Positions 3,523-55,316 of a stretch of 64,000 nucleotides of DNA are shown piece after piece. The stretch comes from an uncultured Alphaproteobacteria bacterium (GTDB taxonomy: Bacteria; Pseudomonadota; Alphaproteobacteria; RF32; CAG-239). The notes beneath the pieces are model-generated. The model saw only the letters and a list, made by a program, of their open reading frames with translations, was not told the DNA's origin and ran no database searches. The stretch's first letter is position 1; every line of letters starts with the position of its first letter. The translations under genes and the position numbers were made by a program. Location of the stretch: positions 18,819 to 82,818 of the forward strand of contig CAKQRZ010000001.1 of NCBI GenBank assembly GCA_934271715.1. The letters are read 5' to 3'.

Positions 3523-4308
3523 TTATTCCATTTCTACAGTAACTGAGCAGCTTTCGGTTGCGCCTGTGCATTTTTTGCAAACTTCATTGATTTGCTGAGG
3601 GGTAATGCTTGTTAAACACTGTTTATTAGAATCCTTGCAATATTTGTCGCCATACCAATAATTTGCGGAGTCATTATTACCTTTGCCGGAGCGCCATACA
3701 CCGGTAAATCTGATAAAGCTGTGCAATGGCGTAAAAACATTAGCCATGATTTCTTCGCAGAATTTTGAAGAAAATGCCGGAGTTGTGGCAGCTCCGTCTG
3801 CGTCATAGTTTGCACCGCCTATTTCTATGCTGAATACAACTCTGTTCCAGCGGGAAAATAAAGCGCTGTTGTTGCCGTAAGCATCTAAAAAAGATGTGTT
3901 GTGATATGCGGCGGCGTTTTGTTCTATAGGCCAATTATCAGGGACTAAGCCTAAGGCTTGTATGGTATCAGCTATGCCGTATACATCGCCTCCGGAATTT
4001 AGTTTTTTAAAGTCTGAAAGATGTTCTACTAACCCCTGCACAAGCTGGTTATATTCTCCGACTGCCTTGGTTAGCTTAAATTTTTCCATGGCTTTGGAAT
4101 AACCTGCGATTCCGCCGACTGATAATACGCCGATAATCGCCAGAACGCCGAGCATTTCTATCATACTCCGCCCGGATTGAGAATAAGCACTTACTCTGCG
4201 TCCCCGGCACCAGTCATTCTTGGGTTTATCCCAAGAATCTTCTCTCAACCAACACTTATGCAATAATAAGGCTAATTTATTGACTAGGTTAGGGACTCGC
4301 TGCAACAA
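3523..4308 (-). CDS. Type IV pilin-like protein with an A-module 5' region. The pilin frame is open upstream to 4506, and the ATG at 4515-4517 is 2 nt out of frame.
   Basis: Mature N-terminus ...SQSG|RSMIEMLGVLAIIGVLSVGGIAGYSKAMEKFK. The C-terminal Cys-rich tail is CKKCTGATESCSVTVEME. The annotated start at 4308 is a TTG artefact of the ORF track. Confidence 0.75.
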   Translation of the reverse strand: MLQRVPNLVNKLALLLHKCWLREDSWDKPKNDWCRGRRVSAYSQSGRSMIEMLGVLAIIGVLSVGGIAGYSKAMEKFKLTKAVGEYNQLVQGLVEHLSDFKKLNSGGDVYGIADTIQALGLVPDNWPIEQNAAAYHNTSFLDAYGNNSALFSRWNRVVFSIEIGGANYDADGAATTPAFSSKFCEEIMANVFTPLHSFIRFTGVWRSGKGNNDSANYWYGDKYCKDSNKQCLTSITPQQINEVCKKCTGATESCSVTVEME

Positions 4309-4480
4309 GATTCTAGGTACAAGACCTAGAATGACTGGTGCTTGAGGCGCTAGCTTAGTGCCGTCTGTTATTTTAGTTTTTACTGTATTATTTCCGAAAG
4401 TGTTATTTTTTCTACCAAACCCTGCAAAAATGTGCTGAACAGCAGAAAAAGTGCCTTTAATCAGATGTTTAGGGTTTGCA

Positions 4481-4494
4481 GAGAGAGAGAGAGA
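4481..4494. repeat. (GA)7/(CT)7 dinucleotide tract between the A-module ATG and the pilin reading frame
   Basis: Direct reading: gca gagagagagagaga cc. The ATG frame reads MKNKLFKGLSLSLQTLNI* and the pilin frame is shifted by +2. Confidence 0.9.
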
Positions 4495-8365: not shown

Positions 8366-8541
8366 TGTGTAAAAAAAACGACCGTTTAAAAGGGACAGTT
8401 TTTAGGCTGTTTTTAGTAATGTATCACGGTTTGCTGCAAAATGCAATAACATAATAATTTTGCGTTATTTTTTTCATAATTTTGCAACATTTCAGCAGCT
8501 TGTTTTGAGTGTGTAAAAATAACGGTCGTTTTTTTTACACA
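8366..8541 (+). repeat. B-module element bounded by 21-bp perfect inverted repeats (tgtgtaaaaaaaacgaccgtt ... aacggtcgttttttttacaca), copy 1
   Basis: Inverted repeats at 8366-8386 and 8521-8541. It is followed by taataggaggaataagATG and the conserved 18 codons. Similar copies lie at 26687-26862 and 55125-55300; the inverted repeats are identical in all three, while the internal segment diverges. Confidence 0.8.
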
Positions 8542-8557
8542 TAATAGGAGGAATAAG

Positions 8558-10195
8558 ATGTTGAAGAGTATGAATTTTTTAAGAGGAAAGAGCAGGGAAA
8601 GAGTAAGTGGAGGCGGCACTTCCGTTTGCAGCGTCATTCTTCGCCGGTACTCCCAGCTGGAAGTACCATGGCGGAGAATCCATAACGTCATTGCGCATGC
8701 AATGTCAGTATGCGTTGCCGTTGGCAACAAAGTCATGGATACTCGTCTGCCACAGCCTGCGGGGTGTGGCGACAAGTATGACGTTTCGGGTCGGTGCCGG
8801 GGACGAGGGGTTAGTGCATTTAGCACCTTTACTATTAAAGCAATGTCAATATTAGCATTTCTTTGCTTATTCGCAACCGCGGCGGAGGCGAAGATTTGCT
8901 TTTTGCCGGACGGCAGCTGCGGCACTAGTAAAACAACCGGATTTAAGCAGAATCCAAACGGAAGCGGATGTATGTATAAATCGGAAGCTGAAGCCCGAAA
9001 CGGCTTAGGCGCCTGCGAAACCACATATAAGCAAAACATGTGCTATTATCGGCGCTGCAAGACTGAAGACAATAATATATTTGCAGACGAGGCAAGCTGC
9101 AAAAAGAAAGCCAAAGCAGATAATTTAATCTGCGTAAGCTGCGGCGGCTGCTATAAAGTTACGCCGAAAACATGCCCGAGTGGGTACACGGCAGGCTTAA
9201 CCGCCTGCGCAGAAAAAGCAGGCTATACGGCAAGTTATTCAAGCAACGGCTATGTAGGATATAGCGTCTGCGGCAAGTGCAAATATACCATAAAATCATG
9301 TGAAAGCGGCTATACTGTGGGCTTGGCCAGCTGTCCGGAAAAACAAGGTTATACTTCTAACTATTCCAGAAACGGAGTTTCCGGCGAGCAGGTCTGCGGC
9401 AAGTGCGACTACACGGCAAAGAGCTGTGCCGGAGGTTATACAGCGGGTCTGACAAGCTGCAGCGAGCGCCAAGGCTACACAGCAAGTTTAGTCAGCAATG
9501 GCTATGCCGGGGAGTTGGCTTGCGGAAAATGCAGTTATACGGCAAAAAGCTGTGCCGGAGGTTATACAGCAGGTCTGACAAGCTGCAGCGAACGGCGCGG
9601 CTATAATGCAAGCTATGCCAGCAACGGGTATGCCGGTGAGAAAATTTGCGGAAAATGCGACTATACGGCAAGAACTTGCCCAGATGGATATTCTACAAGA
9701 TATAGCAGCGTCAGCGCCTGCGGAAAAACAGGAAGTAACGGCTGGAATTATTATACTAATGGCTATTCAGGGGAAGCTGTGTGCGGGCAATGTAAAAGTA
9801 AAGCCTGTCCTAATGGGTATACTTGTACGTATTCTAGTAATATCAAGGCTCCTTGTAATAAAAGTATGGGATGTCCAGGCGATAGTGGGTATTATATTTA
9901 TGGTGGTATATTGGAACTAGGCTGGAGTAATGGATGTTTTGAGCGAGGGTATTATGTATATGTTATCTCTAATCGTTGCGGAGACGGGGTATGTGTCAGC
10001 AAATATGCAGCACGCACATGTCCTAGTGGTACAATGTTAAGAGATAGTGTAGATAATATTTATATATATTGCCAAAATAAAAATGCTACATCTTTTTGGG
10101 ATAAATATAATTGGTCGGCAAGGGCTGCAAAAGATGCAAACGGAGATACAGTTTGTTCAGGTTCAGAAATATGTATGGAATGCTATAAAAAATAA
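8558..10195 (+). CDS. Cys-rich tandem-repeat secreted protein with a B-module N-terminal extension. The signal-peptide-like MSILAFLCLFATAAEA starts at 8822.
   Basis: The ATG at 8558 (RBS aggagg) reads the conserved MLKSMNFLRGKSRERVSGGG and runs in frame, with no stop, into a signal peptide and five roughly 42-aa repeats of the form K.C..GYTAGLTSC.E..GYTAS..SNGYAGE..CGKC.YTA. At DNA level the repeats have a 126-bp period (9416-9541 and 9542-9667 are near-identical). Confidence 0.6.
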   Translation: MLKSMNFLRGKSRERVSGGGTSVCSVILRRYSQLEVPWRRIHNVIAHAMSVCVAVGNKVMDTRLPQPAGCGDKYDVSGRCRGRGVSAFSTFTIKAMSILAFLCLFATAAEAKICFLPDGSCGTSKTTGFKQNPNGSGCMYKSEAEARNGLGACETTYKQNMCYYRRCKTEDNNIFADEASCKKKAKADNLICVSCGGCYKVTPKTCPSGYTAGLTACAEKAGYTASYSSNGYVGYSVCGKCKYTIKSCESGYTVGLASCPEKQGYTSNYSRNGVSGEQVCGKCDYTAKSCAGGYTAGLTSCSERQGYTASLVSNGYAGELACGKCSYTAKSCAGGYTAGLTSCSERRGYNASYASNGYAGEKICGKCDYTARTCPDGYSTRYSSVSACGKTGSNGWNYYTNGYSGEAVCGQCKSKACPNGYTCTYSSNIKAPCNKSMGCPGDSGYYIYGGILELGWSNGCFERGYYVYVISNRCGDGVCVSKYAARTCPSGTMLRDSVDNIYIYCQNKNATSFWDKYNWSARAAKDANGDTVCSGSEICMECYKK

Positions 10196-10373: not shown

Positions 10374-12146
10374 TTATCTTTCTTTTGAGATTTGTGCATA
10401 AAGCTGCTCAAGTTCAGAAAGATATTCAGCCCCCAGATTCAAGCCTTTCTGCCAAAAATCCGGTTTTGAAGCGTCAACGCCGAAATGCGCCAAGGCTTCG
10501 CGGTAGTTTTCTACACCGCCGCGGCGCAGCATCTGCATATACTTTTCCGCGAATCCGTCTACTGTTCCCTTGAGATAAATCTCATACAGCGTATTGACTA
10601 CGCAGCAGGCAAAGCAATAGGAATAGACATAGAACGGATATTGGAAAAAGTGCAGAATTCCCGCCCACATCGGTGCTAAATCGGAAGTGTCAATGCCGTC
10701 TCCCAGATAGGCTTTCATATCCTGAAGCCACCATTTTTCAAGCTGGTCGGCCGAAACTTCTCCTTTGAGGCGTTTCTCGGCGGCATAGCTTTCAAAACAA
10801 TGAAAAGCAATCTGCCGGTAAGCGGTGGCAATCATATCTTCAAGATGTGCTGCCAGCAGGCAAAAGCGCTCTTTCGGAGTTTTGGCCTTTTTCAGCAGCA
10901 AGTTGAACACCAGCTGTTCGGCAAAAATAGAAGCCGTCTCGGCCTGAGCGCAGGCTTTGCGGCGTCCGAGTTCGCCTTGTTCTTTGCTCAAATACTCATG
11001 CACCGCGTGTCCAAGCTCGTGCGCCATAGTGATGACGCTGCCGGTAGTTCCCGTAAAGTTAAGGAAAACCATCGGCATGGCATCGCCGGCCATTTCTATG
11101 CAGTAAGCCCCGCTGTCTTTACCCTTGTAAGGATAGTAGTCAATCAAATTTTCATCAAAGAATCTTTGAGCGATGCGGGCAAATTCCGGAGAAAAAGCCG
11201 TAAATGCTTCAAGCACCAAGTCTTTGGCTTGTTCTATGGTGTAGGTTTGAGTTTCAGCCTCTGCGGCAAACGGATATGGCGCAACTCGGTCCCAGTAGGA
11301 AATCTGCTCAGCTCCGAAAGCCTTGGCTTTCAGCTTGTAATAGCGCTGTGAAACGGCGATGTTGTTGGCAAGCACCGTGTCAACCAGATTATTCAAATCG
11401 GCAGCCACAATGTTATTTTCTAACACGGATTGTTCTTCCGGATAGTCGTAGTTATGCCATTGAGAGTCAATCTGGCGTCCGCGAAGCAAAGCGTTGTAAA
11501 TCAGCGTAAAAACTGAGCGCTTTTCAGCGTATTTCTTAGACAGAGCCGCACCGGCTAAATGTCGTATATCGGCATCGGCAGAACTCAGCAGAGCCAAAGC
11601 GCCGCCCTCGGTGTATTTTTTGCCGCGGACTTTGAATGTCATCGCCGCGCGGGTTTCGTCATAAAGGCGAATCCAATACTGCGTTACGCTGTTCTCATCT
11701 TCAAACAGCTGCTGGAGCTTGGTTTCAATGGTGTGCTTCTTGAAACGGCGGATTTGCTTGAGCCAAGCAAAAGTACCGGCCGGTAGAACTGTCTGCAATT
11801 CCGTCAAATTGATATTTTCGCCGGTTTTGAGCCAGTTAACAAAAAACACCAGCTGTTTTTCCAAAGCGCCGGTTTGGTCGCAGACATTCTGATAAAACGC
11901 CGAAATTTTGCCGTCGTTCAGACTGGTGGAATGCAAAAGATAAGCATAGTCATTTACTCTGCCGGCGTCAATCTGCAGCTGAATATAGCGCTTTAAGGCT
12001 GTATCAATAGCCGGTGCAGAAAGTTCGCGCAGGCGGTATTCGTAAAAAACACGAAAATCTTTTACATCCTGCATAACTAGTTCCATAGTTTTTTCGGCCA
12101 TAGACTGAGATGCGAAAACCACATTTAAATTCCAATTTTTATTCAT
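10374..12146 (-). CDS. pepF: Oligoendopeptidase F (M3B family), paralog 1
   Basis: HELGHAVH zinc motif. Length is 590 aa. Confidence 0.8.
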   Translation of the reverse strand: MNKNWNLNVVFASQSMAEKTMELVMQDVKDFRVFYEYRLRELSAPAIDTALKRYIQLQIDAGRVNDYAYLLHSTSLNDGKISAFYQNVCDQTGALEKQLVFFVNWLKTGENINLTELQTVLPAGTFAWLKQIRRFKKHTIETKLQQLFEDENSVTQYWIRLYDETRAAMTFKVRGKKYTEGGALALLSSADADIRHLAGAALSKKYAEKRSVFTLIYNALLRGRQIDSQWHNYDYPEEQSVLENNIVAADLNNLVDTVLANNIAVSQRYYKLKAKAFGAEQISYWDRVAPYPFAAEAETQTYTIEQAKDLVLEAFTAFSPEFARIAQRFFDENLIDYYPYKGKDSGAYCIEMAGDAMPMVFLNFTGTTGSVITMAHELGHAVHEYLSKEQGELGRRKACAQAETASIFAEQLVFNLLLKKAKTPKERFCLLAAHLEDMIATAYRQIAFHCFESYAAEKRLKGEVSADQLEKWWLQDMKAYLGDGIDTSDLAPMWAGILHFFQYPFYVYSYCFACCVVNTLYEIYLKGTVDGFAEKYMQMLRRGGVENYREALAHFGVDASKPDFWQKGLNLGAEYLSELEQLYAQISKER

Positions 12147-25353: not shown

Positions 25354-25610
25354 ACTCGTCTAATGCAGAAACTCGCCTAATGGCTTTCTGCTGGTAAGAT
25401 TTTTTCTTATGTACTAGTTTGTACACCGCGAAAAAATCTTACTTCGCATTAAGCTCATTATCCGAGTTTCTGCATGCTTGTACCGGTTGTGCTTGTGTAC
25501 CTCGTTGTATACTGCGAAAAAATCTTCGTATTAGCCTCATTATCCGCATTGCTTGACAGAGTGTGCTATTTAAAACCACGCCCCGTAAGGAGGTAAATAA
25601 TATTAGCCAA

Positions 25611-26339
25611 TTAAAATGTCAATACAACGGCACAGGCATCATCTTTAGCACATCCGGAACAATATTTGTTTATATCAGATAAAGATAATTGATTAAAACA
25701 TTTTTTATCGGCACCGTTGCAATAACTATCCCCATAAAAAGCGACAGCTATAGGAAATATCAAAACATATTTTAAGGATGAGTGTAAAGGAGTTGCTATA
25801 TTTTGCACAAACTTTTCACATAAGCTATGAGAAAAATTTGCAGATACAGATTTTCCATCCTCATTTGTTACCCAGCCGCCTAGGTACATATCAAATACTA
25901 AGTCATTGCTGCGAAGGTAAATATTGAAATAATTGCCTAAATTGTCGTGTAAATATGGCCATTCAGGCGGAAGCAGATTTATATTTCTAAAAAATTCATT
26001 AAAATGTGTGCCATTTTTTTGTTTTTTTATGTATTGCAGGTGTTCTGTTATGCCAAAAAGTATATGAGAATAACCATCAATAGCTTTATTGATTTTGTAT
26101 TGCTCCATAGCTTTGGAATATCCGGCAATCCCGCCCACGCTCAACACGCCGATAATGGCCAGCACGCCAAGCATTTCTATCATACTGCGGCCGGATTGAG
26201 AAAAAGTACCATACCTGCGTCCCCAGCACCCATCATTCTTTGGTTTATCCCAAGAATCTTGTGTGAACCAGCTTTTATTTAATAATAAGGCTAATTTGTT
26301 GACTAGGTTAGAGACTCGTTGCCACAAGATTCTAGGCAC
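25611..26339 (-). CDS. Type IV pilin-like protein with an A-module 5' region. The frame is open upstream to about 26576, and the ATG at 26585-26587 is out of frame.
   Basis: ...YGTFSQSG|RSMIEMLGVLAIIGVLSVGGIAGYSKAMEQYK. The C-terminal tail is CSGCAKDDACAVVLTF. Confidence 0.75.
   Translation of the reverse strand: MPRILWQRVSNLVNKLALLLNKSWFTQDSWDKPKNDGCWGRRYGTFSQSGRSMIEMLGVLAIIGVLSVGGIAGYSKAMEQYKINKAIDGYSHILFGITEHLQYIKKQKNGTHFNEFFRNINLLPPEWPYLHDNLGNYFNIYLRSNDLVFDMYLGGWVTNEDGKSVSANFSHSLCEKFVQNIATPLHSSLKYVLIFPIAVAFYGDSYCNGADKKCFNQLSLSDINKYCSGCAKDDACAVVLTF
26164..26291. repeat. 128-bp inverted repeat, left arm. It is 127/128 identical to 27023-27150 in inverse orientation.
   Basis: The reverse complement of 26164-26291 equals 27023-27150 except for one C/T difference. 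The arm covers the pilin leader/N-terminus coding region of both divergent genes. Confidence 0.9.
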
Positions 26340-26550
26340 AAGGCCTAGAATGACAGGTACTAGAGGCGCAGACTTAGTGTTGGTTAATAGATTGCTTCGC
26401 TTTGCTCGCAGTGACGGCAGAGCAAGAGGCGAGCCTGTTAGTTTTGTTCTTAATGCGTTATTACCGAAAGTATCATTTTTTCTGCCAAATCCTGTAAAAA
26501 CGTGCTGAACGGCAGAAAAAGCGCCTTTAATCAGATGTTCAGGATTTGCA

Positions 26551-26564
26551 GAGAGAGAGAGAGA
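26551..26564. repeat. (GA)7/(CT)7 tract of the A-module
   Basis: Direct reading. The ATG frame reads MKNKQSKGLSLSLQILNI*. Confidence 0.9.
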
Positions 26565-26624
26565 CCTTTGGATTGCTTATTTTTCATCTTTCTTTCCTCT
26601 ATATTTAAGTTATTTTATACCTTT

Positions 26625-26654
26625 ATTCTACAACAGCCTCACTCCATAAGTCAA
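26625..26654 (-). promoter_or_regulatory. Sigma70-like promoter of the A-module (TTGACT-N18-TAGAAT)
   Basis: Minus strand: TTGACTtatggagtgaggctgttgTAGAAT. Confidence 0.55.
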
Positions 26655-26686
26655 CCGTAAAATCAAAGCATTGGAAGAATCGGAAG

Positions 26687-26862
26687 TGTGTAAAAAAAAC
26701 GACCGTTTAAAATGGACAGTTTTTAGGCTGTTTTTAGTAATGTAGCAGAGGTTGTTAAAATTTGCAATAACTTTTTATATTTGCGATGTTTTTTGCGGTT
26801 TTATAAAAATTTACAGCGTCTTGTTTTGAGTGTGTAAAAATAACGGTCGTTTTTTTTACACA
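26687..26862 (+). repeat. B-module IR-bounded element, copy 2
   Basis: Inverted repeats at 26687-26707 and 26842-26862, followed by taataggaggaataagATG at 26879. Confidence 0.8.
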
Positions 26863-26878
26863 TAATAGGAGGAATAAG

Positions 26879-27760
26879 ATGTTTAAGAGTATAGAATTTT
26901 TAAGAGGAAAGAGCAGGGGGAGAGTAGGTGGATGCGGTGGACTCTCGCCTCTAGCACCAGTCATTCTAGGTCTTGTACATAGAATCCTATTGCAACAAAT
27001 CTCTAACCCAGTCAATAAATTTGCCTTATTATTAAATAAAAGCTGGTTCACACAAGATTCTTGGGATAAACCAAAGAATGATGGGTGTTGGGGACGCAGG
27101 TATGGTACTTTTTCTCAATCCGGCCGCAGTATGATAGAAATGCTTGGCGTATTAGCTATAGTAGCTGTTCTCTCAGTCGGCGGGATTGCTGGATATTCCA
27201 AAGCTATGGAAAAGTGGAAAGAAAATAAAGTCATCGGCGAATACAGTTACTTAATACAGGGAATTATAGAGCATTTGAGCGACTTTGAAAAACTGAAAGA
27301 CGAGGAAGTCCGCTATGATTTATTGCCGACCTTAGCGGCAATGAATTTGCTCCCCGGCAACTGGAAAAATACAGACGAATATGAAGGGCATAAAAATGTA
27401 TCAGATACCTTAGGCAATACTTTGTCTGTTTTCAGCCGCAGCGACAGAGTGGTTATGACTATATTGTTTGGCGCTAGTTCGGTTTCCGAAAGCGGAGATA
27501 CCGTTTCGCAAACTTTTTCCGGACAATTATGCAAAGCATTTTGGCAAAATATTTTAGTTCCCTTACATAATCAAATTTATTATGCAGGAGTTTATCGCAG
27601 TAAATATTATGAGCGTGCAAATTATTATTTTAATGATAAATATTGCGGCGGCAAAAATCAATGCTTCAGTGAAATCAAATTGAATGATATAGAAAGAATA
27701 TGCAGCGCCTGCGCTTCCGGGGAAGAATATTGCGTGCTTACTTGGGAGTTTGATTATTAG
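26879..27760 (+). CDS. Type IV pilin-like protein with a B-module N-terminal extension, in frame
   Basis: MFKSIEFLRGKSRGRVGG...(81 aa)...SQSG|RSMIEMLGVLAIVAVLSVGGIAGYSKAMEKWK. The C-terminal tail is CSACASGEEYCVLTWEFDY. Confidence 0.75.
   Translation: MFKSIEFLRGKSRGRVGGCGGLSPLAPVILGLVHRILLQQISNPVNKFALLLNKSWFTQDSWDKPKNDGCWGRRYGTFSQSGRSMIEMLGVLAIVAVLSVGGIAGYSKAMEKWKENKVIGEYSYLIQGIIEHLSDFEKLKDEEVRYDLLPTLAAMNLLPGNWKNTDEYEGHKNVSDTLGNTLSVFSRSDRVVMTILFGASSVSESGDTVSQTFSGQLCKAFWQNILVPLHNQIYYAGVYRSKYYERANYYFNDKYCGGKNQCFSEIKLNDIERICSACASGEEYCVLTWEFDY
27023..27150. repeat. 128-bp inverted repeat, right arm
   Basis: See 26164-26291. Confidence 0.9.
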
Positions 27761-27990
27761 AATGTAAAAAAGCCGGATTCAAATTAATGAAACCGGCACT
27801 TACTCTCGGAAACTCGGATAATGAGGCTAATACGCATTAACTTTTTTGCGCCGTGTACAAACTAGTACACAATAGACTAGCAGAAACTCGTATAGCGGGC
27901 GTAGATGCGACGGAATTTTTAAGCGACGTGTACACAATAGTACACAAGCGCAAAAATCCCTAGCAGATACCAGCTAGACGAGTTTCTTCA

Positions 27991-28533
27991 CTAATAAAAA
28001 TAGTAGCGGGCGCCGATTGTAAATTCCTTGCTGTTGTTATAGGCGTCGCCGTCAGCCAAAGAATAGCGGTACATTGCGCGGAAACCCCATTCCGGAGTCG
28101 GGTTAATTTCTCCGCCGATACCCAGACGCAGGGCGTTTGCCGTATCTTTGTCGTTTTTGCCGTTGTATTTTAAGTTAGAAGTAATACGTCCGTAACCGAC
28201 AGAACCTAAAATCGTAGCGTCAGAAACATTGTACATATCAACCAAAACATCGGCGCCATAGCCATAAAAACGGCTGCGGGCTACGTTTGAACCTAAAACT
28301 TTCTTTTCTTGTGCAGAGCGTTCGGTAAAAAATTCTATTGAGCCATAATCAACAAATTTTACACCGGCGGTCAGGCTGCCCAAATCATAGTTATCAGCGT
28401 GAGTATTTTCATATCTGCCTTTTAAATTCGGTGTCATATTAACATAATCAAAGCCGACATACGGGCGGAATTCTCCGGCATTGGCGGAAACAGCGGCCAG
28501 CAGACCGGCGGCAATCAACAAATATTTTTTCAT
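27991..28533 (-). CDS. Outer-membrane beta-barrel protein (OmpW/Opa-like small porin family)
   Basis: Signal peptide MKKYLLIAAGLLAAVSANA. Alternating amphipathic strands and a C-terminal ...YYFY. Confidence 0.55.
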   Translation of the reverse strand: MKKYLLIAAGLLAAVSANAGEFRPYVGFDYVNMTPNLKGRYENTHADNYDLGSLTAGVKFVDYGSIEFFTERSAQEKKVLGSNVARSRFYGYGADVLVDMYNVSDATILGSVGYGRITSNLKYNGKNDKDTANALRLGIGGEINPTPEWGFRAMYRYSLADGDAYNNSKEFTIGARYYFY

Positions 28534-28616
28534 TTTGCATTCTCCTTTTAATCTATTATCGCTTTTATACGACACAATTTATGACTGAAAGGTTAATACA
28601 TACTTTTTTTGTTATT

Positions 28617-31325
28617 TTAGTGTGCGGAAGCCCAAGTGTCGCCGATACCGGTTTCCACCACCATTTTTACGGCGGTATTGGCGACATCTTCCATAATTTT
28701 CTGCAGCAAAGCCGCGGTTTGTCCGGCGTGTTCGGCCTTGACTTCAAGCACCAGTTCATCATGTACTTGCAGCAATAGACGCCCATCCAGCTGATGTTCC
28801 TGCATGGCTTGATAAACCTTTTGCATCGCCAGTTTTACGATGTCCGCCGCACCGCCCTGTATCGGCGCGTTAATCGCTGCCCGCTCGGCAAACGAAACAA
28901 TGCGGTGATTTTTGTCGTTGATTCCCAGCACGGCGCATTTACGCCCCAGCGGCGTCAGCACATAGCCGTGGCTGCGGGCAAAAGCTATGGTCTTTTCCAT
29001 ATAGGTTTTGACTTCCGGCATCGCGGCAAAATACGAATCTATATATTGCTTGGCAATTTCTTTAGTGGTGCCGATTTGCTTGGCTAAGCCAAACTGAGAG
29101 ATTCCGTAAACAATTCCGAAATTTATGGCCTTGGCGCGGTTGCGGTGTTCTCGGTCAACTTCTTCCGGCTTCAGCCCAAACACCCGGGCAGCTGTAGCGG
29201 CGTGAATATCCACACCGGCGGCAAAGGCTTCTTTGAGGGCTTTAACATCGGCAACCGACGCCAGCAGACGCAGCTCCATCTGGCTATAGTCCGCCGCCAC
29301 AATTTTATAGCCCTTGCGCGCCACAAAGCAGGCGCGGATTTTACGCCCGATTTCCGAGCGGTTCGGAATATTCTGCAAATTCGGATTAGATGACGCCAAA
29401 CGCCCCGTATTCACTACCGTTTGCGAAAAAGTGGTATGCACGCGGTTGTTTTGGTCTTTTACTTCCAGCAGGGCGGTGGTGTAGGTAGATTTGAGCTTGG
29501 CATAGCTGCGCCATTCCAAAATATTGGCGGCGATTTCGTGTTCTTCCGCCAGCTGTTCCAAAACTTCGGCGCTGGTGTTATAGTTGCCTGTTCCCGCCGT
29601 TTTTTTCGCCCCGCTGAAACCCAGCTTGTCAAAAAGAACTTCGCCGATTTGCTTGGGCGAACTTAGGTTGAAAGTTGTGCCGGCCAGCGCAAAAATCTCG
29701 TTTTCACATTGGCTCATCTGGCGGGCAAACTCATCGTTTAGTTCTGCCATGCAGTTTTCGTCAATAACAATCCCTTCATCTTCCATTTTCAGCAGCACCT
29801 GAATCAGGCGGCGGTCAAGCATTTCATAAACATACATTTTGCGCTCGTGAAACAGGCTGTCTTTCAAAATGTGATAAAGCCGCAAAGCATAGTCTGCGCT
29901 TTCATAAACATAATTGCCGTATTCTTCATTAAAAAAGTCTATTTTTTTGATTTTCTGCGTCAGTTTCGGCAGGGCGATTTTTTTATCCAGCAGCATATCG
30001 CTCAAAACCTGCAATGTATGTTCGTGCAGCGAGCTGTCCACATCATACGACATAACAGCGGCATCGTGATACGGCCACAAATCCAGCTGTTTGCCGCAAA
30101 TTTTATCTAAATAATGCCATTGTGTTTTTAAGTCTAGGGCAATTTTAAGGATATTTTTGTTTTCCATAACTGAAAGCAAAAATTTTTTAACCGTTTCATT
30201 ATCCAGCTGCGAATATTCGTGATGGGCAAACAAATCAGCTTCGCCCGCTACTTGCGGAATCGGTAGATAGCAGGTGCTGTTTTCGGCGGTGCAGATGCTC
30301 AGGGCTTCCGGTTCAACACCGTTATGCAGAACCTGAAAACTGAATTGCTGCGCGGTGCAGATTTCCTGATACAACGCCTTTAAATCATCGCGGTTTTGAA
30401 TTTTAAAGTAGCGCGCCGGTTCTTCTTTTTTAGCCGCTGCCGGAGCGCCGCCCAAGGCGCAGCAGCGCTCTTCAATCCATTTCTGCAGCTTAGGCAGAAT
30501 GCTCTTAAAGCCAAGCTCGTTGACAAAGTTAATTAAGGTTGCGGCATCCGGCGCCTGACACTTAAAATCTTCAAGCGGATGTTCAACCGGAACGTCATCT
30601 TTAAGCGTTACTAATTTCAGCGAAAGCTCGGCCGATTCCTTATTTTGCATTACCAGTTCGCGGCGTTTGGTCTGTTTGATGTTTTCGGCATTATCCAGCA
30701 CGCCCTGCAGCGAGCCGTACAAATTAACCAGCTCCGCCGCCGTTTTGGGACCAATTCCCGGAATCCCCGGAATATTATCTATTTTATCGCCGGAAAGCGC
30801 CTGCACGTCAATAACCTTATCCGGATAAACGCCGAATTTTTCATGCACGTCATCCGGCGTAAAAAAGCGGTCTTTCATACCGTCATAAAATTCCACATGC
30901 GGGCGAATAAGCTGCATAAGGTCTTTATCCGCCGACACCACAACAGCGTCATGGCCGGCTTCTACCGCCTGTTTGGCATAGGTGGCAATCAGGTCGTCCG
31001 CTTCATAGCCCTCTTGCAGAATGCACGGCAGATTCAGCTTTTCTACAGTTTTATAAATCAGTTCAAACTGCGGAATTAAAAGTTCCGGAATCTCGGCGCG
31101 CGTTGCTTTGTAATCGGCAAAAAAATTGTTGCGGAAGTTTTTGCGCTTGGCGTCAAACAGCACTACGCAGTAATCGCAGGGAATAGCCTTTATCAGCCGC
31201 ATGAACATTGTCAAAAAGCCGTATACAGCGTTGACCGGCGTGCCGTCCGGCGCCGTCATGGTCGGCAAGGCGTAAAATGCTCTGAAAATATATCCTGAAC
31301 CGTCAATCAAACAAACTTTTGCCAT
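28617..31325 (-). CDS. polA: DNA polymerase I
   Basis: 5'-3' exonuclease N-terminus (MAKVCLIDGSGYIFRAFYALP), a 3'-5' exonuclease-like middle region, and the polymerase motifs DYSQIELR and QVHDELVLE. Confidence 0.9.
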   Translation of the reverse strand: MAKVCLIDGSGYIFRAFYALPTMTAPDGTPVNAVYGFLTMFMRLIKAIPCDYCVVLFDAKRKNFRNNFFADYKATRAEIPELLIPQFELIYKTVEKLNLPCILQEGYEADDLIATYAKQAVEAGHDAVVVSADKDLMQLIRPHVEFYDGMKDRFFTPDDVHEKFGVYPDKVIDVQALSGDKIDNIPGIPGIGPKTAAELVNLYGSLQGVLDNAENIKQTKRRELVMQNKESAELSLKLVTLKDDVPVEHPLEDFKCQAPDAATLINFVNELGFKSILPKLQKWIEERCCALGGAPAAAKKEEPARYFKIQNRDDLKALYQEICTAQQFSFQVLHNGVEPEALSICTAENSTCYLPIPQVAGEADLFAHHEYSQLDNETVKKFLLSVMENKNILKIALDLKTQWHYLDKICGKQLDLWPYHDAAVMSYDVDSSLHEHTLQVLSDMLLDKKIALPKLTQKIKKIDFFNEEYGNYVYESADYALRLYHILKDSLFHERKMYVYEMLDRRLIQVLLKMEDEGIVIDENCMAELNDEFARQMSQCENEIFALAGTTFNLSSPKQIGEVLFDKLGFSGAKKTAGTGNYNTSAEVLEQLAEEHEIAANILEWRSYAKLKSTYTTALLEVKDQNNRVHTTFSQTVVNTGRLASSNPNLQNIPNRSEIGRKIRACFVARKGYKIVAADYSQMELRLLASVADVKALKEAFAAGVDIHAATAARVFGLKPEEVDREHRNRAKAINFGIVYGISQFGLAKQIGTTKEIAKQYIDSYFAAMPEVKTYMEKTIAFARSHGYVLTPLGRKCAVLGINDKNHRIVSFAERAAINAPIQGGAADIVKLAMQKVYQAMQEHQLDGRLLLQVHDELVLEVKAEHAGQTAALLQKIMEDVANTAVKMVVETGIGDTWASAH

Positions 31326-31479
31326 TTTTATTTTCTCCTTGTCCGTCAATATAGCGGCTTTTTAAGCATTCGCCAAGCATTAAAAATTTTTCTTTGCGCT
31401 TTTGTTTATAAAAACTTCTTTAACTTATTTTATATATAGTGCAGGCTAAGAGATTTTGGACTGAAAATGAGAGAATAAA

Positions 31480-33549
31480 ATGCCGCAAAACGTAAAACAA
31501 AAAATCCGCCGCAAACTCAAAAAAGGTTTGGTAATTTTAGAAGATACCGTGCGCAAAACCAAAGCGAAAAGCGCTGCCAAAAAGAAATCGGCGCCTAAGA
31601 AAAAACGCTCGTCAAAAAAGAAAAAAGGCGGTTCTTCGCTATGGAAAGTTTTGTTTATTCTCGGCTTGTGGCTGGGACTGTTTTTGTTTATTGCTGTCGG
31701 CTCTTATGTGGCGTATTGCTACTTTACCATGCCGGATATTGCCAAGGCCGTGGCGCAGACACGCCAGCCGTCAACCACGATTATGGCAGAAAACGGCAGT
31801 GATATCGCTTCATTCGGCAATGTCTATGCTGAAGTGATATATCCGGATAATCTGCCGAAAAATTTGACCAACGCCATTATTGCCACCGAAGACCGCCGCT
31901 TTTACAAACACTTCGGCTTTGATGTCTGGGGCTTTGGGCGCGCCATGGTTACCAATCTGTTCCGCGGCCGCTATGCTCAAGGCGCCTCCACTATTACGCA
32001 GCAGGTGGCGAAAAACATCTTTTTAACGCCGAACAAAAATATTAAACGTAAAGTTCAGGAGCTGCTGCTGGCATTTTGGCTGGAAAATAAGCTGACGAAA
32101 AATCAGATTATGGCGCTGTATTTGAACCGTGTATACTTTGGCTCCGGCACCTATGGCGCGGAAGCGGCCGCCAACTGGTATTTCAATAAAAGCGCCGGCG
32201 ATTTAAACCTGCGCGAGGCGGCGATTTTGGCGGGCATGCTTAAAGCCCCGAACAGCTACAACCCGATTTTAAACCGTGAAAAATCGCTGGAACGCGCCAA
32301 TGTGGTTCTGCACAATATGCTGGAATGCGATTATATAAATCAAAAGCAATACGCTTCCGCCAAAACTTTGCCTGTCAGCAACGGCCAGCAATACCGCGTC
32401 AGCGGCGGCAAGCACTTTGCTCAATATGTTTATGACGAAGTCAACAGCTATATCGGCGAACGTTCGGTTGATATAAATGTTATGACAACTCTGGACCAAA
32501 AACTGCAGGAAAGCGCCGAAAAAATCCTGCGTTCGCATATTTGGGGCGCTAAAGGCAAAAACGTCAGCGAGGGCGCGGTTGTGGTTATAGACTACAGCGG
32601 TGCTATTAAAGCCATGGTCGGCGGCATGGATTATAACCGCAGCCAATTTAACCGCGCGGTGCAGGCTATCCGCCAATCAGGCTCGGCGTTCAAGCCTTTT
32701 GTTTATCTCACGGCTTTGCAATACGGCTTTGCGCTGGATAGTATGGTTAATGACGCACCGCTCAAAATCGGCAAATGGCAGCCGTCAAATTACAGCAAGC
32801 GCTATTACGGCAATGTTACTTTGGATTTTGCCCTCACCCATTCACTAAACGTGGCGACAGCGGCGCTTTCTAAGGAACTGTATCTAAAGGATATTGCCGC
32901 CAACGCCCGCAAAATGGGTATCAGCACCAAGCTAAACTTGACTCCGTCCATGGTTTTGGGAACAAACGGCGTTAAAGTATTAGATATGGCGGCAGCATAC
33001 GCCGTGCTGGCTAACGGAGGCTATGCGGTTTGGCCGCATGCAATTAACGAGATTTCCAGCAAAGACGGCCATCAGCTTTATGTGCGCCAGCCTGACAAGC
33101 AAAAGCAGATTATCGCCGGCAATATTGTTAAGCAAATGGCGCAGATGCTAAGTCACGTTATTACCCGCGGTACCGGTAAAAAAGCGCAGCTTCCGTATTT
33201 TGCCGCCGGAAAAACCGGAACCACGCAAAACTACCGCGACGCTTGGTTTGTGGGCTGGGCCGGCGGCTATGTGGCGGCGGTTTGGGTCGGCAACGACAAC
33301 GAAAAGCCGATGAATAAAGTCGGCGGCGGCACTATTCCGGCGGAAATTTGGCACGATGTAATGCTGGCGGCGCACAATATCAGACCGCTTTCCGATGAAA
33401 CTGACGACATCGGCGCGCTGATTGATGACAATGCTTCAGCTGACAGTATCGGCGACTTGATAGAGGAAGAAGATTTAGCCGACGAACCGAAGGTAAAAAC
33501 TAAGTCATCTCCCTCTACTTTAGAGGGCTTGCTGGACAGCATTTTTTAG
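31480..33549 (+). CDS. Penicillin-binding protein 1A family (bifunctional transglycosylase/transpeptidase)
   Basis: N-terminal TM segment. GT51 motifs EDRRFYKH and GASTITQQ. Transpeptidase motifs SGSAFKP and KTGTT. Confidence 0.85.
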   Translation: MPQNVKQKIRRKLKKGLVILEDTVRKTKAKSAAKKKSAPKKKRSSKKKKGGSSLWKVLFILGLWLGLFLFIAVGSYVAYCYFTMPDIAKAVAQTRQPSTTIMAENGSDIASFGNVYAEVIYPDNLPKNLTNAIIATEDRRFYKHFGFDVWGFGRAMVTNLFRGRYAQGASTITQQVAKNIFLTPNKNIKRKVQELLLAFWLENKLTKNQIMALYLNRVYFGSGTYGAEAAANWYFNKSAGDLNLREAAILAGMLKAPNSYNPILNREKSLERANVVLHNMLECDYINQKQYASAKTLPVSNGQQYRVSGGKHFAQYVYDEVNSYIGERSVDINVMTTLDQKLQESAEKILRSHIWGAKGKNVSEGAVVVIDYSGAIKAMVGGMDYNRSQFNRAVQAIRQSGSAFKPFVYLTALQYGFALDSMVNDAPLKIGKWQPSNYSKRYYGNVTLDFALTHSLNVATAALSKELYLKDIAANARKMGISTKLNLTPSMVLGTNGVKVLDMAAAYAVLANGGYAVWPHAINEISSKDGHQLYVRQPDKQKQIIAGNIVKQMAQMLSHVITRGTGKKAQLPYFAAGKTGTTQNYRDAWFVGWAGGYVAAVWVGNDNEKPMNKVGGGTIPAEIWHDVMLAAHNIRPLSDETDDIGALIDDNASADSIGDLIEEEDLADEPKVKTKSSPSTLEGLLDSIF

Positions 33550-33612
33550 TTTGCTATTGTGCAAAATTTTTTATAATATTGCTAAAAGTATTATTTATGA
33601 AGAGAAATAAAA

Positions 33613-34200
33613 ATGAAAAAATATATTTTGGCTATTGCCCTGTTTATATCAGCCTGCTTACCGGCTTATGCCGACAGCACTGCTAAAATGGGCGAAGACT
33701 GGCAGAAAATTTCAATTTACGATGTGAAAAATCCGGCTGTTTTGTTTGGCGAAGATTGGGCAGCCTTGGCTTCCGGTAATAAAGACAGCCTGAACGCTAT
33801 GACTATCGGCTGGGGACAATTCGGTATGCTGTGGGGGCGTCCTATTGTTACGGTTTATGTGGCACCGGAAAGATATACCAATGAATTTATGCAGAAAAAT
33901 GAATATTTTACGGTTATCGGTTTTCCTAAAGCTAAAAAAGAAGCTTTAACCTATATCGGTTCCCATTCCGGACGCGACGGCGATAAACTGAAAGCGGCTG
34001 GCTTGACTCCTGAATTTACAGATTTAGGCAACCCGATTTTCAAAGAGGGAAATCTAGCCATTGAATGCAAAATAATTTATAAAGAAAGTTTTAAGCCGGA
34101 ACTTATGGATGAAAAAGCCAAAGCTTTTTATGAAAGAACCAAACTTTCTCCGCATGTTGCTTATATCGGCGAAGTCATCAACGTTTGGCAAAAGAAGTAA
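33613..34200 (+). CDS. Flavin reductase-like (FMN-binding split-barrel) lipoprotein
   Basis: Signal/lipobox ALFISAC. Motif NAMTIGWGQFGMLWGRPIV. Confidence 0.5.
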   Translation: MKKYILAIALFISACLPAYADSTAKMGEDWQKISIYDVKNPAVLFGEDWAALASGNKDSLNAMTIGWGQFGMLWGRPIVTVYVAPERYTNEFMQKNEYFTVIGFPKAKKEALTYIGSHSGRDGDKLKAAGLTPEFTDLGNPIFKEGNLAIECKIIYKESFKPELMDEKAKAFYERTKLSPHVAYIGEVINVWQKK

Positions 34201-34263
34201 TGGAGAGCAGCTAAACACCCCGTGTCAACCGAAAATGACTTGCGTTTTAGAATATGTATCCGG

Positions 34264-36468: not shown

Positions 36469-37422
36469 ATGGCAACAGTAAATGATACAGAATTTTCGGA
36501 TATTTATATTATTCCGGATGGCACGGCCTACATTTGGGGGCGTCAGACACCAAGCGGATTGATTCAGGTTCAACCGGATGATTATGATGAATTTTTGCAA
36601 CAAGTTATGAATACATATGACGGTCATAATCCAAGTTATCAAGTAAAATTTAAAGGTTTGAACTACCGTGTTGAAAGAACCGTAACGCTGGAAGGACAGC
36701 AATACTGCGCCCGTAAAATGCCTCACTCTGTGCCGGATATTAACAAACTTGGTATAGAAGAACATTTGCTCAAATACTTAAAATCACTAAGCGGCGCTCC
36801 CGGACTTATTTTGCTTGCCGGTACAACCGGTTCCGGTAAAACCACCACTCTATCAGCTTTGCTGCGTGAATTTTTGATTCGCGACGGCGGCTATGCTTTT
36901 ACGCTGGAAGACCCGGTGGAAATGCCGCTGGACGGCACTTATCATACGGTAAACGGCGAGCTTGGCATTTGCAAACAGATGACGCCTCCGGGAGGTTCTT
37001 GGGAAGCCGGTCTGAAATCAATGCTGCGTTCTAAGCCGCGTTATGTATATCTGGGTGAGATTCGTGACCCTGAAATTGCCTCTGAAGCTTTGCGTGCAGC
37101 TATTTCAGGCCACCTTGTTATGTCCACAATTCACGCCAGCACCGTTACTGATGCTATTCAGTCTATTGTAAAATACGCCGCGGCAACCGGTATTTCCGAA
37201 GAAATGGCCTATGACTTGGTGGGCAACGGTATTTTGGCGGTGCTGCACCAAAGCTTGGTCGGCGTTCCTAAGCGCGCTAAAATTGAATATGTGTTTGCTA
37301 ATCCGGACGGCTCTAAAGGCGACCAAGTGCGCGGTATTATCAAAAGCGGCAAGATGAACTTGTCTACCACGATTGAAACTCAGCGCATTCGTTTGTCACG
37401 CGGCGTGCCGTTGTTTGAATAA
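36469..37422 (+). CDS. PilT/PilU-family secretion ATPase (type IV pilus retraction ATPase-like), short form
   Basis: Walker A GTTGSGKTTT, Asp box TLEDPVE, Walker B YVYLGEIRD and His box HLVMSTIHA. At 317 aa it is shorter than canonical PilT. Confidence 0.65.
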   Translation: MATVNDTEFSDIYIIPDGTAYIWGRQTPSGLIQVQPDDYDEFLQQVMNTYDGHNPSYQVKFKGLNYRVERTVTLEGQQYCARKMPHSVPDINKLGIEEHLLKYLKSLSGAPGLILLAGTTGSGKTTTLSALLREFLIRDGGYAFTLEDPVEMPLDGTYHTVNGELGICKQMTPPGGSWEAGLKSMLRSKPRYVYLGEIRDPEIASEALRAAISGHLVMSTIHASTVTDAIQSIVKYAAATGISEEMAYDLVGNGILAVLHQSLVGVPKRAKIEYVFANPDGSKGDQVRGIIKSGKMNLSTTIETQRIRLSRGVPLFE

Positions 37423-38890: not shown

Positions 38891-39029
38891 ACCCTCTCCC
38901 TCAAGGGGCGAGGTTGTTAGTTTACTTCTTAATGCGTTATTACCGAAAGTGTTATTTTTTCTGCCAAACTCTGTAAAAACGTACTGAACGGCAGAAAAAG
39001 CGCCTTTAATCAGATGTTCAGGATTTGCA

Positions 39030-39045
39030 GAGAGAGAGATAGAGA
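39030..39045. repeat. Interrupted CT/GA tract of an A-module: (GA)5-TA-GAGA, 16 nt
   Basis: gca gagagagagatagaga cc. It is 2 nt longer than the other four copies and is still out of frame. Confidence 0.9.
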
Positions 39046-45929: not shown

Positions 45930-46056
45930 TCCAGAACCCTTTATAGAGTAGCTACTGAATGTGTTTTTTCCGAATGTGTGATTTTTTGCGCCGAACTCTG
46001 CAGAAACACGCTGAGCGGCGAAAAATGCGCCTTTAATCAGATGTTTAGGATTTGCA

Positions 46057-46070
46057 GAGAGAGAGAGAGA
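46057..46070. repeat. (GA)7/(CT)7 tract of an A-module
   Basis: Direct reading. The ATG frame reads MKNKLFKGLSLSLQILNI*. The pilin frame reads ...SLSLSANPKHLIKGAFFAAQRVSAEFG... Confidence 0.9.
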
Positions 46071-54177: not shown

Positions 54178-54804
54178 TCATACATTATTATCAAAAAGGA
54201 TTTGAATTAAACAGTAATCGTCTTTGCAGATTTTACAAGCTTCGCTGACTTCCGGCAAATTATAATCTTCTCTTACGCATTCAGCAACAGCATAATCTGC
54301 CGGTCTGGCATTTCCGCAGATTCTATAATCCCAACTGCTGCATGTTCCGCTGCACAATACTATAGTCCAAATAATATCAGTATAAACCGGCAATAAATGG
54401 AATAATTCGCGGCAGTTATATTCGGCTATACTGTTTGGCAATATTTCAAATTGTAAATTTAAACGAGTGTAAATATCATAAGGTTTCATAGTAACAGATA
54501 CTCTGTTTCTAAACAAATCTCTGTTATCATCATCTAACAAGCCTTGAGGCACAATGCCGATTTCTTTTAAGGTGGGCAGAATGTCTTCACTGCGTTTTCC
54601 ATATTGTTTTTCTAATTTATATGTATCTTTGATGTTAAAAATCAGCTCTTCTACTTGCTGAATCCATTTATCTTGCTTCCACTTCTCCATAACCTTGGAA
54701 TAACCGGCGATTCCACCTACTGATAATATACCAACAATCGCCAGAACTCCGAGCATTTCAATCATGCTTCTCCCTAAGAAATTTGCGCTTCTAGCACTCG
54801 TCAT
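54178..54804 (-). CDS. Type IV pilin-like protein with an A-module 5' region. The frame is open upstream to about 55014, and an in-frame ATG gives the short leader MTSARSANFLG.
   Basis: MTSARSANFLG|RSMIEMLGVLAIVGILSVGGIAGYSKVMEKWK. The C-terminal tail is CKICKDDYCLIQILFDNNV. Confidence 0.75.
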   Translation of the reverse strand: MTSARSANFLGRSMIEMLGVLAIVGILSVGGIAGYSKVMEKWKQDKWIQQVEELIFNIKDTYKLEKQYGKRSEDILPTLKEIGIVPQGLLDDDNRDLFRNRVSVTMKPYDIYTRLNLQFEILPNSIAEYNCRELFHLLPVYTDIIWTIVLCSGTCSSWDYRICGNARPADYAVAECVREDYNLPEVSEACKICKDDYCLIQILFDNNV

Positions 54805-54988
54805 ACTAGGCCCTGTGCCTAGTATCTTGTGGCACCAAGGGCGGTGTAATCCATCGCCCCGTGAGGGAGAGGTTATTATTTTTGTTCTTAATGCGTTATT
54901 TCCGAAAGTATCATTTTTTCTGCCAAACCCTGCAAAAACGTGCTGAACAGCAGAAAAAGTGCCTTTAATCAGATGTTCAGGATTTGCA

Positions 54989-55002
54989 GAGAGAGAGAGA
55001 GA
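54989..55002. repeat. (GA)7/(CT)7 tract of an A-module
   Basis: Direct reading. Confidence 0.9.
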
Positions 55003-55062
55003 CCTTTGCTTAGCTTATTTTTCATCTTTCTTTCCTCTTATTTTAAGTTAATTTACATCTTT

Positions 55063-55092
55063 ATTCTACACCAGCCATACTCCATAAGTCAA
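55063..55092 (-). promoter_or_regulatory. Sigma70-like promoter of an A-module (TTGACT-N18-TAGAAT)
   Basis: Minus strand: TTGACTtatggagtatggctggtgTAGAAT. Confidence 0.55.
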
Positions 55093-55124
55093 CCGTAAAA
55101 TCAAAGCGTTGGAAGAGGCGGAAG

Positions 55125-55300
55125 TGTGTAAAAAAAACGACCGTTTAAAAGGGACAGTTTTTAGGCTGTTTTTAGTAATGTAACAGAGGTTGCTAAAATT
55201 TGCAATAACTTTTTATATTTGCGATGTTTTTTGCAGATTTGTGAGACTTTTCAGCGTCTTGTTTATAGTGTGTAAAAATAACGGTCGTTTTTTTTACACA
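55125..55300 (+). repeat. B-module IR-bounded element, copy 3
   Basis: Inverted repeats at 55125-55145 and 55280-55300. An internal putative promoter TTGCTA-N18-TATATT lies at 55209-55238. Confidence 0.8.
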
Positions 55301-55316
55301 TAATAGGAGGAATAAG

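Follow-up and report, generated by a model that had tools for sequence, protein, structure and literature searches.

We analyzed a 64,000-nt stretch of DNA (the window; contig CAKQRZ010000001.1, positions 18,819 to 82,818) in which two pilin genes, gA and gB, stand head to head with near-identical inverted repeats at their 5' ends. The source is an uncultured human-gut "Alphaproteobacteria bacterium", named as such in metagenome-assembled genomes (MAGs) and represented among Hadza and other gut metagenome contigs, and the locus is chromosomal. An initial annotation of the window had placed gA on the minus strand behind a start module in the OFF state (the A-module) and gB on the plus strand behind a module that is in frame (the B-module), and the open reading frames (ORFs) and their translations confirmed this arrangement. 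Below, compared contigs carry L-numbers, protein matches from other assemblies carry P-numbers, and breakpoints are given in window coordinates. The genes and repeat arms are as follows.

25611..26339, minus strand: gA ORF, from the ORF list
26879..27760, plus strand: gB ORF, intact, with AGGAGG upstream
25611..26163, minus strand: body A, the variable globular part of gA; pepF adjoins it in every contig carrying body A
27151..27760, plus strand: body B, the variable part of gB; it always adjoins outer membrane protein (OMP) and polA genes
26164..26291, minus strand: left core arm, encoding ALLLNKSWFTQDSWDKPKNDGCWGRRYGTFSQSGRSMIEMLGVLAI, which is the end of the long leader and the prepilin cleavage motif; 127/128 identical to its partner
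27023..27150, plus strand: right core arm, the inverted partner of 26164-26291
26084..26368, minus strand: extended left arm, 285 nt, 86% identical to its partner
26946..27230, plus strand: extended right arm, from the repeat finder

Both genes share the sequence ...G↓RSMIEMLGVLAI(I/V)(G/A)VLSVGGIAGYSKAME, with Gly at -1, Glu at +5 and a hydrophobic helix. In translation the prepilin motif reads ...SQSG↓RSMIEMLGVLAIIGVLSVGG, again with Gly at -1 and Glu at +5 and with about 20 hydrophobic residues, and the motif residues were invariant or nearly so across 35 homologues. An AlphaFold model (pLDDT 86) showed the pilin fold, a long N-terminal helix on an antiparallel beta-sheet. Profile scores all fell below threshold, with 16.0, 13.7 and 14.6 bits for TIGR02532 (cut-off 16.3) and 14.6-15.9 bits for PF07963 (cut-off 21.2). 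Leader lengths were atypical, at 88 residues in gB and about 130 in gA when it is in frame, versus about 6-30 positively charged residues in a classical leader; allelic forms of bodies A and B do carry 8-residue leaders, such as MYKNFEKG. Together, gA and gB are divergently transcribed type IVb-like pilin genes with homologous 5' coding regions, each consisting of a long leader, a cleavage motif and an N-terminal helix.

The pilin family is large, with 7853 database proteins reaching E < 1e-5 among the 8000 candidates scored, and about 8 of its members lie in the window, dispersed among housekeeping genes. A single PilT/GspE-family ATPase is encoded at 36469-37422, and neither a prepilin peptidase nor a platform protein was seen within the 64-kb window. 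An Rfam scan of the window returned two tRNAs and nothing else. A literature search on the N-terminal motif and on RF32 pilins found no paper on this pilin family.

Near-identical arms in inverted orientation

Direct comparison of 26164-26291 with the reverse complement of 27023-27150 gave identity at 127 of 128 positions, just as the initial annotation had stated, with the sole mismatch at 26226 (G versus A). The repeat finder placed this core within longer arms at 26084-26368 and 26946-27230 (285 nt each, 86% complementary, with a spacing of 577 nt); 731 bp (26292-27022) separate the core arms. Beyond the core, the arms were 75.8% identical over 157 nt, and at that background the chance of finding 127 or more matches in 128 positions is ~1.6e-14.

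We asked at which level this identity is held. Forty-one of the 42 core codons were identical, and the remaining one was a synonymous difference. In the N-terminal helix directly 3' of the core, conservation of the protein was equal, yet there were 9 synonymous differences in 26 codons. Since the synonymous sites of the core are identical too, the identity lies at the DNA level and is explained by recombination, not by selection on the protein. Judged from the sequence, the identity of the 128-bp core is the mark of recent recombination of the two arms, through gene conversion or through crossover with conversion. The initial annotation had likewise read the near-identity as recent recombinational homogenization, and that reading held (P ~1e-14, with synonymous sites identical).

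Selection acting on the DNA or RNA itself, for example on a palindromic leader unit or on mRNA structure, might also hold two copies alike. The core does contain a REP-like palindromic half-unit (coding KPKNDGCWGRR), and in L006 and L007 this unit and its inverted copy form a near-perfect hairpin. Other paralogues and strains nevertheless carry many substitutions in this part, with the gene at 3523-4308 only 87% identical and single-nucleotide polymorphisms in the cores of L004, L025 and L009, and third codon positions were identical only between the neighbors gA and gB. We therefore consider selection of this kind highly improbable as the source of the identity.

A collapsed or duplicated repeat in the assembly could create a similar picture, and it is true that sister contigs break inside the region and that the genome contains further copies of the modules. 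The arrangement was matched, however, at 4101 of 4101 nt by a contig from an independent Hadza gut metagenome, and the same gene was present on contigs of up to 219 kb. The longest exact repeat between the arms is only 65 nt, because the single mismatch falls in the middle of the core, and the flanks are unique. An assembly artefact is thus an unlikely source of the arrangement, and we give it the slightest weight of all the explanations considered here.

The two start modules and their cassette

The segment between the arms carries two different start modules, one facing each gene. Their parts, and the repeat element that lies beyond gB, are as follows.

26585..26654, minus strand: A-module start, with promoter-like TTGACT-18-TAGAAT (26654-26625), the ribosome-binding site GAGGAAAG and ATG 26587-26585
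26550..26563, minus strand: (CT)7 tract, which reads (AG)7 on the plus strand and throws ATG 26587-26585 out of the pilin frame
26292..26549, minus strand: coding part of the A-module leader; no stop interrupts the pilin frame between the CT tract and the prepilin motif, and an in-frame palindromic repeat unit lies within it
26687..26862, plus strand: B-module promoter region, 134 nt between the perfect 21-nt inverted repeats 26687-26707 and 26842-26862
26752-26781, plus strand: B promoter-like site TTGTTA-18-TATATT, a consensus match
26866..27022, plus strand: B-module, with AGGAGG ribosome-binding site, ATG 26879 and the B-specific part of the leader (MFKSIEFLRGKSRGRVGG...)
27761..27872, plus strand: pilin 3'-flank repeat element, with a diverged inverted copy at 25407-25470, 3' of gA

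The promoters of the A-module and of the B-module are consensus matches only. In the A-module, the frame that begins at ATG 26587-26585 reaches a stop after 18 codons, and 6, 9 or 12 CT units would join the ATG with the pilin frame. The tract lengths that we saw were 5, 7 and 8 units, all of them OFF, and 6 and 12 units, both ON. Specifically, (CT)8 in L009 was out of frame, while full-length MKNK.SKGLSLSANP... proteins from other assemblies corresponded to 6 units in P0118, P0131, P0138 and P0145 and 12 units in P0137. The A-module, described at the outset as phase-variable through its CT tract, reads from these lengths as a genuine repeat-gated, phase-variable start.

Five A-modules are present in the window. 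Four of them have (CT)7 tracts, at 4480-4493, 26550-26563, 46056-46069 and 54988-55001, and the fifth, at 39029-39038, has five units. All three of the (CT)7 modules that were translated (4480, 26550 and 46056) were out of frame. For a tract presumed to be hypermutable, the same length of 7 units at four loci of a single genome is striking.

The B leader also precedes many other pilin bodies. Perfect 21-nt inverted repeats (TGTGTAAAAAAAACGACCGTT / AACGGTCGTTTTTTTTACACA) flank the 134-nt promoter region upstream of the ribosome-binding site of every B-module in the window, at 8366-8541, 26687-26862 and 55125-55300. These repeats were 100% conserved in the six arms, and the interiors were 78-91% alike. 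The promoter elements had one orientation in all six copies examined, three in the window and three in a related GTDB genome. The 21-nt repeats could be operator sites or recombinase sites. We considered a small invertible promoter of the fimS type at these repeats and rejected it, as the flipped-orientation pattern was absent from the genome and the metagenome contigs, a comparison of low power for an element that is nearly species-specific. L010-L012 (the CAVKTH01 contigs) belong to the only GTDB representative genome with exact matches to the B-module. That genome is labelled 'Bacteroidaceae bacterium', and its contigs terminate at the modules and are otherwise without a match to the window, so that the label or the binning looks doubtful.

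The 5' untranslated region (UTR) of the B-module, 26785-26895, was predicted to form a hairpin of -24.4 kcal/mol (z = -3.2), whose outer stem takes up the AUG and part of the Shine-Dalgarno sequence. The predicted fold suggests translational control, and the B start may not be constitutive. The initial annotation had called the B-module constitutive; given a promoter bracketed by 21-nt repeats and this predicted pairing of the 5' UTR, that is an assumption. A non-pilin ORF at 8558-10195 (plus strand), Cys-rich and 545 residues long, also begins with a B-module and leader units; a Sec-like signal (MSILAFLCLFATAAEA) lies inside it, some 95 residues after the start of the B-module. Either the B-module serves non-pilins as well, or its ATG in this ORF is not the true start.

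The divergent cassette formed by the two modules (the A/B cassette) recurs in the window, as 26438-26933 is 92.9% identical to 54876-55371, and the latter copy lies within a second head-to-head pilin pair (54178-56084). The body of the gene at 55317-56084 was found elsewhere in L031, adjoining LolA, with a short MKLNQSG leader.

An inverted repeat is also internal to the A leader (26215-26271 / 26315-26371). The leaders are composed of in-frame palindromic (REP-/RPE-like) units such as ..VILGLVPRIL.., ..KPKNDGCWGR.., ..GEGLHRPWC.KILGT..MTGGRGA.., ..LLRRYTPRND.. and ..SKQRSVAVGNKVMDTRLPQPAGCGDKYDV.., which were seen at 26215-26371 of the window and in proteins P0024, P0038, P0042, P0087 and others. 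The number of units is variable and yields predicted leaders of up to ~260 residues (P0042 has three tandem copies), and the frames were open throughout. Across the contigs we distinguished four kinds of 5' module: A, which has a promoter of its own, an ATG and a CT repeat that gates the frame; B, with a promoter region between 21-nt repeats, a 5' UTR predicted to be structured and a strong ribosome-binding site; C, consisting of promoterless repeat-unit leaders; and D, the classical 8-residue leader.

Module exchange among pilin bodies

The initial annotation had proposed a comparison of this locus across strains. We made that comparison and found mosaic variants, in which bodies A and B were joined to several 5' modules with breakpoints in the arms. 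Body A followed an A-module in the window, a B-module in P0001 and a combination of B and C in P0166 (six contigs from three samples). It followed promoterless C-type leaders in the P0002 cluster (24 members), the P0003 cluster, L006-8, L013 and L014, and it was also found with the short classical leaders MYKNFEKG, MSKNFQAG and MSKKSQIG. Despite these differing 5' ends, nt 28-553 of body A were 100% identical in the window, L004, L006 and L007. A scan of JGI metagenomes with a body-A 41-mer returned two contigs only, both of the C-leader type. Body B was joined to B, to A with (CT)8 (P0108, L009), to a short form of B (L028, L030) or to no start; its commonest form, listed in 67 blocks, was the one with MYKNFEKG (P0155). 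The 3' neighbors were constant, pepF with body A and OMP/polA with body B.

The breakpoints of these alleles fell at several places. In the left arm they were at 26183 (L006, L007, L013, L014 and L020) and at 26213 (L025 and L027), and in the right arm at 27057 (the L006/L007/L032 allele) and at 27122 (the L015/L026-type rearrangement). In L025, the arm joined to body B was of the gA type.

In a frequent allele (L006, L007, L008 and L032, equivalent to 26183-27057), the whole A/B cassette was absent and the two leaders abutted as a near-perfect palindrome (GCGTCCCCAGCACC.GTCATTCTTGG...CCAAAGAATGATGGGTGCTGGGGACGC). Both genes of this allele were without a convincing start and resembled silent cassettes.

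Orientation also varied. The A/B cassette was reversed beside body A in six contigs. In L020-22, where the leader units differ, its B side was turned toward body A and pepF, and these three contigs ended at the CT tract of the A side. In L024, perfect inverted copies (112/112) of the pilin 3'-flank element, at 4149-4260 and 10680-10791, flank a 6.4-kb block with genes for an OMP, polA, PBP1 and a flavin reductase, and this block was reversed in L026 versus L024, which come from different metagenomes. Comparison of such contigs demonstrates that DNA inversion at pilin-associated repeats takes place in this species. In the commonest allele (L015-L019, L026 and L031), 27122-34215 had the opposite orientation with respect to the TolX and T2SSE flank, and one of the breakpoints coincided with the first base of the sequence that codes for GRSMIEML.

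In that commonest allele, body B with its MYKNFEKG leader adjoins the TolX/FadL-like gene; at this junction the window carries a YafQ/RelB toxin-antitoxin pair (~34.26-34.83 kb). An IS1595-family transposase gene lies between pepF and the pilin gene in L024 (2486-3169) and L026 (11771-12454), where body A is missing and only a leader remnant is left.

We propose that the shared leader and N-terminal stretch acts as a joint, at which general (RecA-type) homologous recombination would re-assort 5' modules with pilin bodies. The bodies would stay anchored to their 3' neighbors while the modules move, and both crossover and conversion would act on the conserved leader/N-terminal stretch and on the repeat units that the leaders share. 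If the 128-bp arms crossed over, 26292-27022 would be inverted; body A would then be read from the B start, which is in frame, and body B from the A start with its CT gate. This swap had been put forward in the initial annotation; the geometry of 26292-27022 agrees with it, while the inverted form of the window allele appeared in no contig.

The head-to-head geometry and the promoters carried on the segment would also suit programmed, site-specific inversion as in the Hin, Piv, Fim, shufflon or mycoplasma Xer systems, with a dedicated recombinase that recognizes a short core site. For pilins, such inversion systems are known in Moraxella Piv and the R64 shufflon. In the tested ORFs of the 64-kb window and of the related-contig neighborhoods, however, there was no recombinase, integrase or invertase Pfam domain, with the sole exception of the IS1595 transposase in one variant allele. 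Crossovers were spread over at least four arm positions (26183, 26213, 27057 and 27122) and also occurred within the core, instead of at one short site, and the arms consist of long coding homology. Because of these three features, namely the lack of a recombinase domain, the spread of the crossovers and the long homologous arms, general homologous recombination is the best supported mechanism, and we hold a dedicated site-specific element to be very improbable.

We used synthetic inversion-product proteins as queries against ~5.8 billion protein clusters. The query that joined the B leader to body A matched P0001 at 99% identity over its full length, and P0001 is encoded on L004, a contig of 939 nt. 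Positions 1-207 of L004 differed from the 5' end of the window's gB by one mismatch, positions 321-939 differed from body A by one mismatch, and the exchange point lay in the core.

Several observations weigh against inversion of this segment. No contig had the inverted form of the window allele with both junctions, and the complete window-type contigs were all in one orientation, although minority orientations within a population are invisible in consensus assemblies. L004, which holds the only core-crossover junction between the B leader and body A, is short, ends in other repeats and has a 167-nt exact stretch in common with the gB arm of L025; it may be a short-read assembly chimera, because an exact repeat of this length could mislead a short-read assembler. 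In an exact look-up of the predicted recombinant proteins of the window allele, none was present in a collection of ~15 billion proteins. The window's own GTG-start ORF, which served as a control, was likewise absent, so the look-up is informative only for the product that joins B to body A. Some of the re-assortments, such as D on body A with its direct-repeat geometry, need gene conversion or strain-to-strain transfer instead of inversion. Homogenized arms are, in addition, not a general property of A/B pairs as judged from the sequence, because the arms of the second pair, at 54178-56084, are only 73-89% alike.

Two further candidates for traces of inversion were rejected. L009, in which an A-module precedes body B, was considered as the reciprocal product, and its A-module was only 81% identical to that of the window, with a different left flank. 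The ends of sister-assembly contigs, at 26439 and 26829, lie inside the segment and not at the arms, and other copies of the A and B modules in the genome account for them.

The single orientation of the complete window-allele contigs, the absence of the exact recombinant products from the collection and the unhomogenized arms of the other A/B pair would all fit a one-off episode of concerted evolution. Under such an episode, a single conversion tract would have copied the 128 bp, inversion would not proceed at any useful rate, and the diversity of module-body combinations would arise slowly and partly between strains. Between L024 and L026, the inverted block shows ~4% divergence and the pepF flank 99.9% identity, which also points to exchange between strains. 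On the other side, nucleotide-identical (100%) bodies carry at least 7 different 5' ends, which indicates that re-assortment outpaces point mutation; beside body A the cassette occurs either way round; and perfectly homogenized inverted repeats recur at another inversion (L024/L026). We regard the one-off episode as a possible but doubtful account of the locus.

As a whole, the explanation by a recombination joint is in our judgment probably correct, a view that we hold with modest confidence. That 26292-27022 itself inverts at a biologically meaningful rate is a serious possibility, toward which we lean somewhat to the skeptical side. We infer the inversion of this segment, its RecA dependence and its frequency, and the rate is likely to be that of strain-to-strain variation and not that of a fast programmed switch. 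For the switching by inversion or conversion that the initial annotation had proposed, the mosaic alleles, the cassette standing both ways beside body A and the inversion at the 112-nt repeats speak in favor, and the missing exact recombinants and the lack of an invertase in the window speak against. What is partly supported is a module-shuffling joint of the RecA type, not a proven rapid switch.

A broader picture can be offered tentatively, as one that we think may well prove wrong. In a combinatorial, 'plug-and-play' form of pilus variation, dozens of fixed type IVb-like bodies among housekeeping genes would be served by portable 5' modules (the CT-gated A, the structured-UTR B and short leaders), with palindromic-unit leaders as the joints. 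The A/B cassette would be a two-faced invertible element that assigns a stochastic start to one gene and a standing start to the other, and at least one non-pilin secreted protein would use the same modules.

If the locus does act as a switch, a common uncultured gut-commensal lineage would combine repeat slippage and recombinational re-assortment on one portable module, and this in a very large family of type IVb-like pilins. The biology of surface variation, so far described mainly from pathogens, would then reach gut Alphaproteobacteria, and in-frame palindromic repeat units would be exemplified as recombination joints. On the practical side, pilin loci of this type break metagenome assemblies, and their pilin genes are mis-called as truncated or 'hypothetical'.

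Relation to known variation systems

The closest analogue of the pilin locus appears to be the sap promoter inversion of Campylobacter fetus. In that system, S-layer paralogues lie in opposite orientations, their conserved 5' coding region forms the inverted repeat, and the segment with the promoter flips by homologous recombination without a dedicated invertase. The pilin locus has the same elements, with opposed paralogues, a shared 5' coding region and one or more promoters (consensus matches only) on the segment between, and as in sap a flip of the promoter-bearing segment between shared 5' repeats would set which body gets which start. Reports on sap inversion (Dworkin & Blaser 1997; Tu et al. 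2001) appear in the reference list of PMC1950947. Unlike sap, the pilin segment carries two start modules, one CT-gated and one in frame, and a flip would swap the regulation of the two genes instead of turning one gene ON and the other OFF. The pilin arms are also shorter (128-285 bp versus ~600 bp in sap), the proteins are pilins, and inversion at the pilin locus is a proposal.

In the Q/I inversion of Moraxella bovis and M. lacunata (Piv) and in the R64 shufflon (Rci, acting on PilV of a type IVb pilus), the promoter and the N-terminus are fixed and C-terminal parts are swapped by a dedicated recombinase at short sites. Like these systems, the locus described here would vary pilins through crossover inside the pilin coding sequence, and the shufflon shares the type IVb class. 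The pilin locus differs in its fixed bodies and mobile 5' modules, and no recombinase was found in the window.

In Neisseria pilE/pilS, a single expression locus receives copies of variable segments of the body. Promoterless copies occur here as well, as in L006 and L007, where both genes are without a usable start, and recombination in conserved pilin sequence would similarly alter expression. In contrast to pilE/pilS, the bodies of the pilin locus stay in place while the 5' modules change, the modules are of several kinds, and no G4 element was identified.

Inversions are described for Ureaplasma MBA / UU172 (PMC3047005) and for the mycoplasma vsa, vsp and vpma families (PMC5634654). The likeness to these lies in the joining of one 5' expression region to alternative bodies by inversion at N-terminal repeats, with chimeric genes as the result. 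Those systems are site-specific, with a Xer-like recombinase and short repeats, and act on clustered genes of wall-less hosts, whereas the pilin genes are scattered, show many crossover positions and belong to an alphaproteobacterium.

Phase variation by a CT dinucleotide repeat of the oipA type is described in Helicobacter pylori (PMC10564699). The A-module resembles it in having a CT repeat in the 5' coding region that gates the frame, and differs in that the gate sits on a portable module common to at least five genes in 64 kb and appears to be coupled to recombinational re-assortment.

Palindromic elements of Rickettsia are said to have been described in 2000 by Ogata et al. as insertions in frame within genes. 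The pilin leaders are likewise alphaproteobacterial sequences with palindromic units kept in frame, built of variable numbers of such units. They differ in that the units are concentrated in the N-terminal leaders of one family and coincide with recombination breakpoints.

The separate parts of this locus are thus already known, including repeat-gated starts, inversion of 5' regions, switching of N-terminal modules, inversion of pilin genes and silent pilin copies. What appears to be new is their combination: a two-faced divergent cassette, modules that are portable over many scattered genes for type IVb-like pilins, leaders that consist of in-frame palindromic units coinciding with breakpoints and reach lengths of 90 to >250 residues, and an uncultured gut commensal as the host.

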